Positions 741-25,345 of a stretch of 64,000 nt of DNA are shown here, piece after piece. Location of the stretch: positions 160,001-224,000 of the forward strand of contig CAWIKF010000001.1 in NCBI GenBank assembly GCA_963836755.1, in the 5' to 3' direction. Within the stretch, counting starts at the first letter, position 1. Each line of letters begins with the position of its first letter. The DNA is from an uncultured Verrucomicrobiae bacterium. Lineage in GTDB: Bacteria > Verrucomicrobiota > Verrucomicrobiia > Chthoniobacterales > Chthoniobacteraceae. The notes below the pieces were generated by a model that was given only the letters and a program-made list of their open reading frames with translations, searched no databases and had not been told where the DNA came from. The position numbers were made by a program, and so were the translations under genes.

Positions 741-837
741 GGCCACGGATGGACACGGATGAAACACAGATGCGGATTGCTCACAGCCTTTCCTATTTTT
801 TTCCATATCCGTGGTTCATCTGGGTGCATCCGTGGCC
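741..837. repeat. REP-like inverted repeat built from CACGGAT units
   Basis: 741-771 GGCCACGGATGGACACGGATGAAACACAGAT matches the reverse complement of 807-837 (GGCCACGGATGCACCCAGATGAACCACGGAT) at 26/31; 35-nt pyrimidine-rich spacer. Confidence 0.85.
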
Positions 838-894
838 TAAGACCTCTCGAACGCAGCGAAAGAGTGGAAAGGCGAACCGCGCCGCTTTTCCGAT

Positions 895-1144
895 GGAGCA
901 ATTTGCTACGATGAATACCCTCCGGACTGCGATGCCGGAGTGTTTTGCTGCGTCATCGCAGCTATTTGCACCTTGACGGAGCTTTTTGCTCCGGTGGTGC
1001 AGTAAATTGCTGCGTGCTCGCAGCTTTTTGCATCCATGCCGATGCTCCGCGCTGCGATGTCGAACCTTTTTGCTGCGAGATGAGGCTTTTTGCTCCGAGG
1101 TCGGAGCTCCGAGGATGTTCCGCTATGCTTTTTGCTCTGATTTC
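895..1144. repeat. Degenerate tandem array, 12 units of 20-21 bp, consensus approx. GSAGC-TTTTT-GCTSC-GATGNC
   Basis: Units start at 895, 916, 937, 958, 978, 999, 1020, 1041, 1062, 1082, 1103, 1124; e.g. GGAGCTTTTTGCTCC (978), GCAGCTTTTTGCATC (1020), GAGGCTTTTTGCTCC (1082). Confidence 0.85.
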
Positions 1145-1194
1145 CGACCGGTCTTCTCTGTAAACGGACCTCGCGACGGCTCGCGCGAGGCTGC

Positions 1195-1704
1195 TTAAGC
1201 CGTCGCTGGAAGAGCGGTCGCAGCAGCAGCCGCCGCCGCAGCAGCCGCCTTGCGTCGCCCGGGGAAAAACGCGCTCATTTTATCGAGCAAACCCTTGAGG
1301 CTGTCAGGCGCGCTAATCTTAAGAATGCTGTAAACGCGCAGGGCGAAATTCGCGAGATCGACGCCGATGGCCATCTCCGTGTCGCTGGCCGCCTCCGCCA
1401 GCTTCGCGACGCGGGCAAAGTAGGGGCGGCATTGATCGAGCGAAGCCAGGTCGGCCTGCGCTTCCGCCGTGCCGGAGCCGGCCGGGATGTTATTGGGATT
1501 CTGCACCGCCGCCGTCACCGAATCGCGCACCAACTGCTCGCGTGAGGTGCCCATCTTGAAAAGGTGGGAACGCTGATCGCCGGTCAAGGAAACAAGATGC
1601 GGCAGGAACTTTGTTTCCAAAGTAGTGAGTGCAGCATCGATGGCAGTCAAATCCGCTGCCGGGATGCTAAGGGAAACAAGGTTTTCGTTGGGGTTGGATG
1701 GCAT
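1195..1704 (-). CDS. Uncharacterised alpha-helical protein (169 aa) with poly-Ala tail
   Basis: ORF MPSNPNENLVSLSIPAADLTAIDAALTTLE...LFKMG...DTEMAIGVD...VYSILK. Resembles, from memory only, a widespread unannotated family with an L-x-K-M-G motif. Confidence 0.85.
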   Translation of the reverse strand: MPSNPNENLVSLSIPAADLTAIDAALTTLETKFLPHLVSLTGDQRSHLFKMGTSREQLVRDSVTAAVQNPNNIPAGSGTAEAQADLASLDQCRPYFARVAKLAEAASDTEMAIGVDLANFALRVYSILKISAPDSLKGLLDKMSAFFPGRRKAAAAAAAAAATALPATA

Positions 1705-2628: not shown

Positions 2629-3194
2629 ATGAAATTAGGAGACCTCGCTAACTACGCTCAAGTATTCAGCTTGCCGCTGACGGTTTTTTTTGGTGGGTGA
2701 CGGCAGATCGCTTTTCAAGATTTTGGAAGCAAAGAGGCAAGCTGATCCTTCTAGTTCTTTTTCTCGTAGCCATAGTTGCAGCGAAGCGGATCGGGTGGTT
2801 AAACCAGCAAGCTCCAATCTGGCTTCTAGGGTTGCTGCTCGCATGTTGCGTTCTGATTATGTGGTTCTACCAAAAGGTCGGTAGTATTCCTGCTAGGCAA
2901 CCTTGTTCTTCTGGGAATGTGGAGGGCGTAGAATGGAATTGGCGAATCGTCTATGGCAGGTTTCTTGAAAACAGTCTTGTTCCTATTTGTCCGAATGCCT
3001 CGTGTCGCTGCCAATTAGATCACGAAAGAGTGGAATACGTTGGAAACGAGCAAAGCTACCGGCGTGTCGATCATGTGAAGCTAAAATGTCGTCGTTGCGG
3101 GTTTAGCCGCGTTTTCGAGTGCAACTGGATCGACCTGTTGCATGATATTCGCATTGAGGTCGAGAGACGTTTTCGAACGGAGGAATATCATTAA
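2629..3194 (+). CDS. Membrane protein with C-terminal Zn-ribbon-like domain; apparent frameshift at T8 run 2684-2691
   Basis: ORF 2697-3194 has two hydrophobic segments plus CPNASC and CRRC motifs. The upstream frame MKLGDLANYAQVFSLPLTVFF joins it (...VFFWWVTADRF) if the run is T9. Confidence 0.6.
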
Positions 3195-3216: not shown

Positions 3217-4035
3217 CTAAGCTTTGCGCTTCGTATCTTTGACGCCTGCTTTGCGCACGGGGGCTTTTTTTGCACCGTTGCCGTCTAGCGTGGTTTGACC
3301 GGATTTGGGCGTCGCTTTTACCACTTGGAAGTCTTGCAAGGCGGGTGACTCGACGACGGTGATTTCGGCGTTGTCGTTCCATGGGGCTTTGACGTCTTTC
3401 TCGCCCTGGTCGCCTTCGCCGGTGGAGTCGTTATACCATTGGTCGACGATTCCTGGCGTGGGCGGGATGAGTCCGACTGCGAGCGGCGGTTTGCCGAGGC
3501 TGTCGAGGGCTTGCATGAAGGCGCGCATGTGGGTGATCTCGCGGGTCATCAGGAATTGGAGCGCTTCCTTGGTGCCGGGGTCGTCGCAGAAATTGATGAG
3601 GCGTTCGTAGACGATCTTCGCGCGCGCCTCGGCGGCGATGTTGCTCCGCAGATCGACGTCGAGTTCGCCTGTTACTTTTAAATAATCGGCGGTCCACGCG
3701 TCGCCCATGGAGTTGCAGAGCGCGACGCCTCCACCGCCCGCGATGGCGATGAGCGGATCGTGCTCGGCGGCATCGGCGTCGGTTTTCATCGGTTTCAAAT
3801 GCATGCGCGCGAGCGTGCCGATGATTTCGAGATGGCTGAGCTCCTCGGTGCCGATGTCCATGAGGAGGTCTTTGCAGGCAATGTCCTCGCAGTTGATGCC
3901 CTGGATGGAGTATTGCATGGCGGCGGCGAGTTCGCCGTTGGCGCCTCCGAATTGCTCGAGCAGCATATTGCCAAAGCGCGGCTCGGGACGGCCGACGCGG
4001 ACGGTGAACATGAGTTTCTTGATGTGATGATACAT
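3217..4035 (-). CDS. Manganese catalase family protein
   Basis: EQFGGANGELAAAMQY, DIGTEELSHLE, DLRSNIAAEARAKIVYERL, REITH motifs. Confidence 0.95.
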   Translation of the reverse strand: MYHHIKKLMFTVRVGRPEPRFGNMLLEQFGGANGELAAAMQYSIQGINCEDIACKDLLMDIGTEELSHLEIIGTLARMHLKPMKTDADAAEHDPLIAIAGGGGVALCNSMGDAWTADYLKVTGELDVDLRSNIAAEARAKIVYERLINFCDDPGTKEALQFLMTREITHMRAFMQALDSLGKPPLAVGLIPPTPGIVDQWYNDSTGEGDQGEKDVKAPWNDNAEITVVESPALQDFQVVKATPKSGQTTLDGNGAKKAPVRKAGVKDTKRKA

Positions 4036-22424: not shown

Positions 22425-25345
22425 CCCGGCTGCTCCTCGATCGAGAGCAGGATCACCGGCTCGCCCTGCACGTCATGGTCGATGCGGCGCGCATTGAGCA
22501 GCATCCGCTTTTTTCCGATCTGCGGAAAAGTGTGGATGACCTCGAAATCCTGCACGCGCGTTTTTTTCGGCAGGATTTTTTCCAGCAGCGACCGGAGTTG
22601 CGGGATGTCCCACTGGCCGTTGCCGAGATCGTAGAGCAATTGCCCCTCGGTCTGCCGCGCGGTCACGACGAACGTTTTGTAAAATGCTGCGGTCGCCCAT
22701 TTCACGCGCAGCTCGCCATCGAGCACGAGAAATGACCCGCGCACCGTCTCCACGAACGCCTCCGCGTATGCGCGCGCCTGCTCCCTGTGCTTCGCCTCGC
22801 GCCGTGCCGCGTCGATGTCGAAAAGAATCAGCAGCACGCCGGTGATCTGGTTTTCCGAAGTCTCATACGGGCGCACCTGCAGCCGCCACCAATGGCCATC
22901 CTCGCCGCGCACCTCCGCCTCGCGCGTGTGCAGATGCGTGAGCACGTCGCGCAACATTTTCTCCAGATCCGGCAGATCGAAACCGAGTCGCAGGTTCGTG
23001 ATCGGGCGGCCCAAGTCGCCCGCGACAAGCTTGAACATTTTCTCCGCGACGGGCGTGAAACGGCGGATGCCCAGGTCGCGGTCGAGCATCACGATCGGGA
23101 TGTTCACGCTGCGCAAAAGATTGACGAGATCGTTGTTCACCTCGCCGAGATCGAGGTTCGTGTGCTTGAGTTCCTCGTTGACGGTTGTCAATTCCTCGTT
23201 CGTCGATTGCAATTCCTCCTTCGCCGTCTCGAGTTCCTCGTTCGTGCTTTGCAGTTCCTCGTTGCTCGACTGGATTTCCTCATTCGCCGAGCGCAATTCC
23301 TCGTTCGTCGCCTCGTGCTCCTCGATGACCGATTGCAAATGCTCGCGGCTCGCGGCCAGCTCATCCTCGAGCTGCTTCGCCCGCTCGTCACCGCCTTTCA
23401 ACCCGCCGCGCGCAGGCCGTGCGGATGGCGCCGGCTCCGGCGGACGCTCCTCGAAAAGCACCACGAAACAATGCTCACGCAACGCCGGCGAACCGAGCGG
23501 GATGACGTCGATATTCACGAACCGCGGCGGGCTCCCGCCGTGGCCGTTGATGCGGACATTTTCCTTGCGCACGGGCGAACCGATTTTTTTCGCGCGATTG
23601 ATCGCCGCCCGCAGCTCGATCTCAATCGCCGGCCGCGTCATGCGGAAAAGATTCAAGCTCGCCTCGCCCGACGATGGATCGAGAAAAGGCGCGACGCTGC
23701 CGCGGAACTGGATGATTTCCAGATTCTCGCCAACGACGATCGCTGGCGGACAATAGCGCGCCATCAACAGGCGGTCCGCCTCTTTTTGCACATCCAGCCG
23801 GCTCCAGATTTCCTTCTCGCCGCGCGGTTCGCCCGCCGAGCCGTGCGGCGCGGGCATTTCGAGATGTTCTTCCAAAACGGGATCGCCGGCACCGGCGCGC
23901 CGCACGAAGATTTTGTTTTTCGCATCCACGCTCTCGAAAATATCCGAGAACGCGCCGATCGATTCCGCGCTGCCGAGCAGCAGCCAGCCGCCGGGCTTGA
24001 GCGCGTAGTGAAAGATCGGGATCAACTTTTTCTGCGCCACCGGCTCGAAATAGATGAGCACATTGCGGCAGCTCACGAGATCGATCTTTGAAAACGGCGG
24101 GTCCTTGATCACATTCTGCCGCGCGAAGACGCACCGGTCGCGCACGGCCTTGCTGATCTGCCAGCCGGTTTCCGTGCGATTGAAAAAACGCCGCAGCCGC
24201 TCCGGCGAGACCTGCGCCTCGATACTCGCGGGAAAAATTCCTTTCCGCGCCTGCTCGACCACCCGCTCGCTCACGTCCGTCCCGAAAATCTGGATCGCAG
24301 GCGCGCCCGGCGTGTCACCCATGTATTCCAGCAGGCTGATCGCCAGCGAATACGCCTCCTCGCCCGTCGAGCAGCCGGGCACCCAGACGCGCACCGTGCG
24401 ATTCTGCCCGCGCTCCCGCATCAGCGCCGGATAGACCAGCCTTTCCATCGCCGCGAACGTTTCCGGCTCGCGGAAAAAACTGGTCACGTGGATGAGCGCG
24501 TCCTGGTAGGCCGCGTCCACCTCGTCGGGATGCGTCTGGAGATATTCGGCGTATTGCTCGTGATCGTCGATCCGGTGCACCACCATCCGGCGCTCGATGC
24601 GCCGGTGGATCGTCGTCTGTTTGTATTGGCTGAAATCGACACCCGTCGCGCTGCGCAACAGCGAGTAGATCTTTTTCAATCCATCCACCGGCGCCTCTCC
24701 GGCCTGCGGCTGCCGCCCTTTTACCACGAAGGGATGCTTGCCGAGCCGTGCGATCTCCTCCGCGATCTTCGCAGGCGGCAGCACGAAATCGACGCAGCCC
24801 GACCTCACGGCGCTGCGCGGCATGCCGGGATATTTCGCCGATTTTTCATCCTGCGCAAAGGTGATGCCGCCGTTGGCCTTGATCGCCATCAAGCCTTCCG
24901 TGCCGTCGCTCGCGTTGCCGGAAAGCACCACGCCGATCGACGTCCCGTCGCATTCGCCGGAGAGCGAGCGGAAAAATTCATCGATCGGCAGATGCGGGCC
25001 GTTGGTTTTCCCGCGCGGCCGCAGATGCAGCATCTCCCTGTCAATCCGCATCTCCACATTCGGCGGGATGATGTAAACGTGATCGCGCTCCACATGCATC
25101 CCATCGGTCGCCTCCGCCACCGGCATTTTCGTCGAGCGCTGGAGGATCGCGCTCAGGTGGCTCGGATGTTTCGGGTCGAGATGCTGCACCAGCGCAAAAG
25201 CGAGGCCGGTGCGCGCCGGGAGATGCTTGAAAAGTTCCGTGCAAGCCTCCAGCCCGCCCGCGGATGCGCCGATGCCGACCACTGGGCACGCCTCGGTGGG
25301 GCGGGGCTTCGATCCTTTCGCGCGGGAGGGACGCTTGCTAGCCAT
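22421..25345 (-). CDS. CheB methylesterase / CheR methyltransferase fusion with coiled coil and PAS domains
   Basis: GIGASAGGLEA, QHLDP, DGTEG (CheB); VTSFFREP, GCSTGEEAYS, SCRNVLIYF (CheR); NEELQSTNEE heptads. Confidence 0.95.
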   Translation of the reverse strand: MASKRPSRAKGSKPRPTEACPVVGIGASAGGLEACTELFKHLPARTGLAFALVQHLDPKHPSHLSAILQRSTKMPVAEATDGMHVERDHVYIIPPNVEMRIDREMLHLRPRGKTNGPHLPIDEFFRSLSGECDGTSIGVVLSGNASDGTEGLMAIKANGGITFAQDEKSAKYPGMPRSAVRSGCVDFVLPPAKIAEEIARLGKHPFVVKGRQPQAGEAPVDGLKKIYSLLRSATGVDFSQYKQTTIHRRIERRMVVHRIDDHEQYAEYLQTHPDEVDAAYQDALIHVTSFFREPETFAAMERLVYPALMRERGQNRTVRVWVPGCSTGEEAYSLAISLLEYMGDTPGAPAIQIFGTDVSERVVEQARKGIFPASIEAQVSPERLRRFFNRTETGWQISKAVRDRCVFARQNVIKDPPFSKIDLVSCRNVLIYFEPVAQKKLIPIFHYALKPGGWLLLGSAESIGAFSDIFESVDAKNKIFVRRAGAGDPVLEEHLEMPAPHGSAGEPRGEKEIWSRLDVQKEADRLLMARYCPPAIVVGENLEIIQFRGSVAPFLDPSSGEASLNLFRMTRPAIEIELRAAINRAKKIGSPVRKENVRINGHGGSPPRFVNIDVIPLGSPALREHCFVVLFEERPPEPAPSARPARGGLKGGDERAKQLEDELAASREHLQSVIEEHEATNEELRSANEEIQSSNEELQSTNEELETAKEELQSTNEELTTVNEELKHTNLDLGEVNNDLVNLLRSVNIPIVMLDRDLGIRRFTPVAEKMFKLVAGDLGRPITNLRLGFDLPDLEKMLRDVLTHLHTREAEVRGEDGHWWRLQVRPYETSENQITGVLLILFDIDAARREAKHREQARAYAEAFVETVRGSFLVLDGELRVKWATAAFYKTFVVTARQTEGQLLYDLGNGQWDIPQLRSLLEKILPKKTRVQDFEVIHTFPQIGKKRMLLNARRIDHDVQGEPVILLSIEEQPG

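Follow-up and report, generated by a model that had tools for sequence, protein, structure and literature searches.

A helical orphan protein and its 21-bp arrays of inverted half-sites: a candidate DNA-coating module in bacterial genomes

The gene of an orphan all-helical protein (P0001) and an array of short palindromic units repeated at 21 bp occur side by side in 109 of 121 homologous loci. The pair was studied from a stretch of 64,000 nucleotides of an uncultured Verrucomicrobiae bacterium, which is referred to in its whole length as the window. An earlier note on this DNA had proposed an undescribed system composed of a gene and an array, and the linkage bears the proposal out. No earlier description of such a module was found in the openly accessible full-text literature searched. 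The arrays of the P0001 family are non-coding. With moderate confidence, P0001 is taken to bind them as symmetric dimers, one to each inverted pair, and, by coating about a dozen units, to form a lattice that has a preferred size. The observations behind this reading are the linkage itself, a consensus common to many arrays, the dyad geometry of the unit, a preference in array size, stand-alone arrays in gene-rich genomes, and arrays inserted in-frame into genes.

Features of the array locus, with positions counted in the window
Feature	Position	Strand	Basis or remark
Orphan all-helical protein gene P0001	1195-1704	minus	169-aa ORF, structure prediction
Hairpin CCTCGCG/CGCGAGG	1169-1175 + 1184-1190	minus	7-bp GC stem, 8-nt loop, just after P0001 stop codon
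TCTTCTCTGTAAAC	1152-1165	plus	Variant of TTTACTCTG[TG], a landmark recurring at many array ends in the window's genome (G000)
Array, 12 palindromic units	895-1144	no strand	Fits family consensus CGRRGC-N5-GCYYCG-N4
Module tail	848-894	no strand	Likely left end near 848, from soil DNA contigs
Long inverted repeat	741-837	no strand	Separate dispersed genome repeat outside the module
Frameshifted remnant	2493-2620	plus	Context only; translation read by eye

The layout described earlier for the window, namely a 169-aa gene, a hairpin, and 12 units at 20-21 bp, was recovered in full. Ten units are 21 bp long and two are 20 bp long (958-977 and 1062-1081), and the periodicity of the array is 0.438, compared with 0.282 +/- 0.015 in 2000 dinucleotide shuffles (maximum 0.339; z = 10.4). 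The make-up of the unit had been described less accurately. The three units quoted are present, but only one of the 12 contains a perfect 5-bp inverted pair, two match in four of the five pairs, three are devoid of the A/T tract, and the arms are 6 bp long. The U-tail of the hairpin is weak, and no terminator was called there. Two soil contigs, one 99% identical over 848-1123 and the other 84% identical, both diverge beyond 848, while a further one spans 768-962 with the window's arrangement; all of these come from one study at low depth. The long inverted repeat, which had been included in the layout, is real. However, similar copies occur about eight more times elsewhere in the genome, with core words in six to seven copies. 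Consequently, this repeat is not part of the array. Two copies of its family directly adjoin other 21-bp arrays (C1:273675 and C1:615850).

The neighbouring genes had been described as decayed DUF2442-like and methyltransferase genes. Neither of the two remnants, at 1832-1930 and 2493-2620, gave a Pfam match, so that the DUF2442 label is at most putative, and the second bears a resemblance, seen by eye, to the start of an adenine DNA methyltransferase. A Mn-catalase gene (3217-4035) and a low-GC orphan ORF of 165 aa (2697-3194) sit in a block that is apparently absent at this position in another genome, G001. The genes that flank the interval from 741 to about 4100 in the window adjoin each other in G001, as matched by eye.

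The view that P0001 belongs to no known family agrees with searches of Pfam, NCBIfam, PHROGs, and PADLOC, none of which contains one for it. Its profile nevertheless matches 2498 clusters at 50% identity. The predicted structure, modeled with 93 sequences (pLDDT 93, pTM 0.73), is all-helical, with helices at residues 16-36, 42-47, 53-68, 79-131, and 134-144, and residues 79-131 form one helix of 53 residues. In the family, G52, P74, D108, G114, Y125, and L136 are near-invariant, and basic residues are conserved at positions 45, 46, 50, 54, 60, 93, 98, 105, and 129, as well as in the C-terminal arm. Overall, the protein is about neutral and not basic, with a pI of 6.1 and a family median of 6.7. 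A sequence search of the PDB gave chance Arf matches only, and fold searches using Foldseek (PDB and BFVD) and VIA-align returned nothing at E <= 0.001 or Z >= 5. An empty fold search of this kind is proof neither of a new fold nor of missing relatives. The ESM Atlas matched P0001 to unnamed clusters only, no homologues were found in IMG/VR, in plasmids (two queries), or in phages, and a metagenome scan with P0003 gave no matches. Among 46 family members, there was no match to Y1_Tnp. A DUF6261/HagB-like identity was not supported: the 46 members gave no PF19775 match, and the own-genome search had no positive control.

The distribution of the gene is patchy, and it is sometimes present in many copies. 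It occurs in 13 of 61 genomes, including the window's own (G000), with 39 matches in genome G004, 15 in G028, and seven in G055, and in seven of 301 genomes across the phylum. Members of the family come from Verrucomicrobia and Proteobacteria, and clusters resembling it exist in other phyla. The 39 G004 copies (L084, L094, and part of L100-L142) are diverged paralogues, mostly free-standing units, which share a promoter-like motif, TTTTTGACATG, and a terminator-like hairpin. Several of them carry long low-complexity C-terminal extensions.

For the linkage count, 160 homologous loci were fetched, the 121 with both flanks of at least 400 bp were counted, and 39 short-flank loci were dropped; the threshold for an array was set against far-flank control stretches. 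A period-21 array lies no more than 600 bp from the gene on the downstream side in 96 loci, on the upstream side in 14, and on both sides in one, with no array in 12. The control stretches pass the threshold in 2 of 358 cases, and periods of 18, 19, 20, 24, and 25 are detected in 2-7 loci. The 21-bp arrays that the earlier note had suggested looking for beside homologues are thus present at most of them. Between 11 and 13 units are found in 32 of 57 gene-linked arrays, while 25 fall outside this range, with a tail reaching 24. Array words fall to background below about 70% protein identity, a turnover much faster than that of the protein. In the window's clade, the gene-linked arrays are colinear, and therefore inherited.

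In 23 of 74 loci, an RM gene or another gene of defence type lies upstream, a count made with no background control and among kin that are not independent. Upstream neighbours of the RM/nuclease type are divergent in 15 of 17 cases. A Pfam scan limited to the upstream side revealed no ParA/ParM/TubZ-type motor among 132 ORFs from the 74 loci, and none was seen by eye among the top recurring neighbour clusters. At two loci (L043 and L245), repeated translated motifs about 1 kb downstream of the gene suggest a CRISPR-like array.

Dyad symmetry exceeds z = 2 in 102 of 133 arrays, and the steps between units are overwhelmingly 21 bp (1230 steps, compared with 57 of 22 bp and nine of 20 bp). Once aligned on the dyad, 62 of the 75 arrays left after dereplication at 85% protein identity share a unit of approximately CGRRGC-N5-GCYYCG-N4. 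This cross-array consensus carries 1.97 bits, while the null reached 0.24 at most. When a matrix derived from 55 arrays outside the window's clade is applied to G000, the window array scores 6.97 and ranks first of 63, the next score being 3.66. The array of the distant second paralogue in the same genome scores 0.73 and does not fit the consensus. The fit also fails in the arrays of eight other distant homologues; of the 22 distant cases tested, about half fit. The consensus common to the arrays could partly reflect descent. Covariation between residues and bases was above permutation, but it was dominated by clade structure, and no clean code emerged.

The centres of the half-sites alternate at distances of 11 and 10 bp, and therefore all of them lie on one face of the helix. 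This agrees with the phasing suggested in the earlier note. Its further suggestion of bending by A-tracts does not hold in general, as only 14 of 133 arrays have the A/T tract.

The genome from which the window comes (3.2 Mb, 96% complete) holds many more arrays, which make up a genome-wide class that appears to disperse by itself. A scan returned 83 matches at period 21, compared with 3-10 at periods 18, 19, 22, 23, and 24; 14 of 84 matches were dropped as too short or coding, leaving 70 arrays. Of the 70, 21 flank orphan genes, which belong to several families with a distinct unit for each. Some arrays share their unit with a gene-linked array yet sit between housekeeping genes, and some dispersed arrays share their ends with a gene-linked copy. 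The window's own array has no stand-alone copy in G000. Comparison of the P0001 family with four other array-linked orphan proteins by hhalign indicated no homology, at the low power of a profile set against single sequences. Eleven array-adjacent proteins belong to no Pfam family, with the exception of one GIY-YIG. Among the further orphan families, some appear by eye to have a beta-rich C-terminal part, and one has its array upstream in 6/6 members.

Four G000 arrays lie in-frame inside genes (L151-L154, at C1:61209, C2:1021274, C2:52285, and C2:799678). Judging by their motifs, these genes are presumably alaS, ispG, nrdJ, and an RND transporter gene. The arrays within them carry unit sequences other than those of the P0001 family. 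The insert is missing from ispG in 5/5 relatives and from nrdJ in 3/3 full-length relatives, and in nrdJ it is flanked by a 7-bp direct repeat whose copies are 216 bp apart. Other inserts are carried by alaS and ispG too, and the alaS-like gene holds an in-frame Y1 transposase-like segment.

A motif similar to TTTACTCTG is found at or near 22 of the 70 G000 array ends, and 17 of its 24 occurrences in the genome are at arrays. It was rejected as a specific mark of arrays because it is also present in another repeat class in G008, a genome with no homologue. In G008 (L184-L203), there are 91 TTTACTCTG[TG] sites against a control of 4. The 20 stretches read there contain other repeats or none, many of them belonging to a different dispersed class with a period of about 10 bp.

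The paralogues in G004 mostly have no adjacent array: none was present in the fetched flanks (mostly 1.5 kb) of 27 of the 39. If the protein needs its sites, these are therefore to be expected elsewhere in the genome. The consensus pattern, defined from other genomes, occurs 282 times in G004 against 12 in the control, and 58 times in G028 against 10. Of the 61 genomes, only these two, which have the most gene copies, are enriched for it. The other 59 have no excess, including G055 (19 against 22). Fifteen G028 and G004 pattern sites, the first of many listed, were fetched, and one of them (L296) was without a full array.

The following concerns twelve G028 arrays among the matches listed, all on contigs without the gene. 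They have no common flanks, ten consist of 13 units (265-266 bp) and two of 12 units, and 133 of their 141 linkers are distinct. A single +1 step, at a varying position, is present in ten of the twelve, and no target duplication over 5 bp was found. Circular permutation among these arrays was tried and rejected, the best circular alignment being 0.451 compared with 0.450 when the order was shuffled. No linked master of the G028 pattern turned up in eight G028 gene loci, where it matched 0-1 times. Two G004 arrays among the matches listed (L297 and L298) are homogeneous, with 16-17 units.

In the preferred reading, the array would be non-coding and consist of inverted half-sites that follow one another at each helical turn; the helical protein encoded beside it is predicted to bind it as about a dozen symmetric dimers. 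The nucleoprotein lattice so predicted would have a preferred size of 11-13 units, or about 250-270 bp. On geometrical grounds, dimerisation may occur via the 53-residue helix, which at about 80 A nearly matches the 71 A spanned by 21 bp. Contact with DNA would probably be made by the basic RxxLxKMG segment and the C-terminal arm. The coated array could then be the cis-acting component of a small, selfish and mobile module riding in defence islands beside restriction-modification genes. Such a role is the favoured purpose of the coated array, and it is also the least certain part of the reading.

Several observations count against the lattice. The protein is about neutral, no clean residue-to-base code was obtained, G004 contains paralogues without arrays in the fetched flanks, and G055 has no excess of the consensus. 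In addition, the arrays of the second paralogue and of the eight distant homologues are off consensus, G028 offers no linked master, and 25 of the 57 gene-linked arrays lie outside 11-13 units. A bolder claim, tentative and on balance improbable, is that of a new class of selfish element. Here, the protein would assemble into a particle, with about 13 dimers on a lattice of 270 bp, and would itself make or mobilise arrays in which half-sites and length are fixed and spacers are free. Several unrelated orphan families would run parallel versions of it, seeding dozens of arrays per genome, some of them in-frame in essential genes.

The best placed of the rival explanations, though an unlikely one, regards the arrays as products. 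The protein, perhaps together with a host polymerase or nuclease, would write or amplify 21-bp units by means of a molecular ruler and place them genome-wide. Fixed length combined with random spacers would then be due to synthesis, not to selection on old copies. The G028 arrays agree with this, as they have length and half-sites in common, but not spacers, order, or flanks; the varying position of the +1 step and the absence of visible target duplications, among the matches listed, point the same way. Array abundance also tracks gene copy number, and Y125, D108, and several arginines are conserved. However, old copies with saturated spacers explain G028 as well. The colinear gene-linked arrays of the window's clade appear inherited, and the ends that some dispersed G000 arrays share with a gene-linked copy are those expected of copies.

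Next in rank, and doubtful as well, is a DNA-antitoxin or defence system, in which the protein would be toxic unless titrated by arrays, and array loss or phage-driven degradation would free it. The near-obligate linkage is consistent with such a system, and so are the extra arrays in genomes with many gene copies, the RM and defence neighbours, and the patchy distribution among relatives and across the phylum. Many G004 paralogues are nevertheless free-standing, equipped with a promoter-like motif and a terminator-like hairpin, which counts against it. Titration of a toxin is compatible with the binding proposed in the lattice reading and is a possible purpose of it.

Less probable again is an explanation in which the protein would be bound by a repetitive RNA folded into small hairpins (6-bp stem, 5-nt loop, 4-nt linker). 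It resembles the co-transcribed 3' RNA that the earlier note had offered as its alternative, and the present results weaken it. The window strand does fold better than shuffles (z -3.6), and a canonical terminator precedes the downstream array in 28 of 107 cases (8 on the opposite strand), leaving 79 without one; therefore, read-through is possible. At the arms, G.T slightly exceeds A.C on the gene's strand in one test (600 against 507), but the bias is reversed in another (155 against 188). Both strands of the arrays fold equally, with a mean z of -4.5 each and the sense strand favoured in 25 of 46. Arrays can also sit upstream, as in 14 of the 121 loci; where they do, a terminator directly follows the gene in 12 of 16 loci, and the array lies beyond the promoter region. 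Furthermore, RNA hairpins need no strict 21-bp period. A comparison with Rfam gave no notable match (best E 4.6). Complementarity of the arms is 0.529 within units and 0.538 between units (n = 62). Belonging to the same unit thus gives two arms no pairing advantage; this reveals no selection for hairpins within units and favours sites in duplex DNA over RNA hairpins. Action of the array as duplex DNA, rather than as RNA, is accordingly the favoured view.

It is very unlikely that a RAYT (Y1) transposase moves the arrays as REP-like clusters, with the helical gene as passive cargo. G000 contains two Y1_Tnp matches, neither of which is the P0001-family gene, and no RVT_1 match. In G036, REP-like doublets, GGGCAGGATGCCC, have a 21-bp spacing and fit the RRGC-N5-GCYY geometry of the family consensus, a shared geometry that speaks for this explanation together with the other inserts in alaS and ispG. 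A REP or the inverted repeat seen at 741-837 lies no more than 200 bp from 5 of the 70 arrays, compared with 12 of 500 random stretches, but 65 of the 70 are without one. The consensus, moreover, tracks the P0001 family across phyla, and the 48 genomes without the gene are not enriched for it.

Finally, an origin of the array as a decayed heptad-repeat open reading frame is extremely improbable: 21 bp equal seven codons, at least one open frame is kept in 76 of 79 arrays, and four G000 arrays are read in-frame inside genes, but out-of-frame spacings occur in 29 of 60 arrays, one array (L001) holds both unit orientations, and, among the matches listed, 7 of the 12 stand-alone G028 arrays are stopped in all six frames and 10 contain the +1 step. 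The non-coding character claimed in the earlier note is upheld by the out-of-frame spacings. A codon-phase test of the arrays was flat, and so was its coding control (n = 2). A 953-aa gene in the window contains a 21-bp period repeat (23171-23345) that appears to encode a coiled coil; it served as a control.

The P0001 family, with at least 2498 clusters, has no annotation, and it gains a candidate DNA site, geometry, and stoichiometry. The proposal would also account for an abundant class of 21-bp arrays, of which there are about 70 in one genome of 3.2 Mb; some of these supply essential enzymes with additional repeat peptides. Should P0001 prove to build or spread fixed-length arrays, it would represent a new mechanism by which repeats arise and perhaps a compact tool for DNA scaffolding. 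If it is instead titrated by arrays, a new kind of defence switch would result.

Among known systems, type III toxin-antitoxin modules have transcribed repeats that precede the toxin gene and are separated from it by a terminator. In contrast, P0001-linked arrays are downstream of the gene in 96 of 121 loci. Partition systems (type I/II/III) have phased repeats beside the gene of a binding protein, as does the P0001 module. ParR on parC and omega on parS are examples of centromere-binding proteins acting on iterated centromere DNA. For the P0001 module, no motor NTPase was seen among the upstream ORFs and top neighbour clusters, and the Pfam and fold searches gave no match to an HTH or RHH family. 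The module differs from the centromere-adaptors of partition in being chromosomal, located in defence islands, with the array usually downstream and copies dispersed in trans. Its likeness to TubR-tubC (PMC6009700) is the predicted spreading along phased repeats beside the protein's own gene into an assembly of defined size.

KfrA of IncP and IncU plasmids resembles P0001 in being all-helical and coiled-coil-like, and it is proposed to polymerise given its cognate DNA site (PMC8124265). KfrA is a longer plasmid protein that acts with KfrC and KorB, whereas the P0001 family gave no plasmid match in two queries and has a 12-unit palindromic array. REPIN/RAYT systems (PMC3116915) share the tie between a gene and its own repeat class and the many dispersed, non-autonomous copies. 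They differ from the present module in that P0001 is not a Y1 tyrosine transposase and its arrays are tandem rows of 11-13 units at a fixed 21-bp pitch, with no selection at the level of hairpins. The BrickBuilt MITE of Porphyromonas gingivalis is similar in its dispersed tandem arrays, its unit of about two helical turns, and its leader and tail parts (PMC4596501). Its single unit of 23 nt is conserved, its terminal repeats are IS5-like, no gene is linked to it, and its position is always intergenic. The arrays described here, by contrast, comprise many unit families with freely varying spacers, and some of them are found in-frame within genes.
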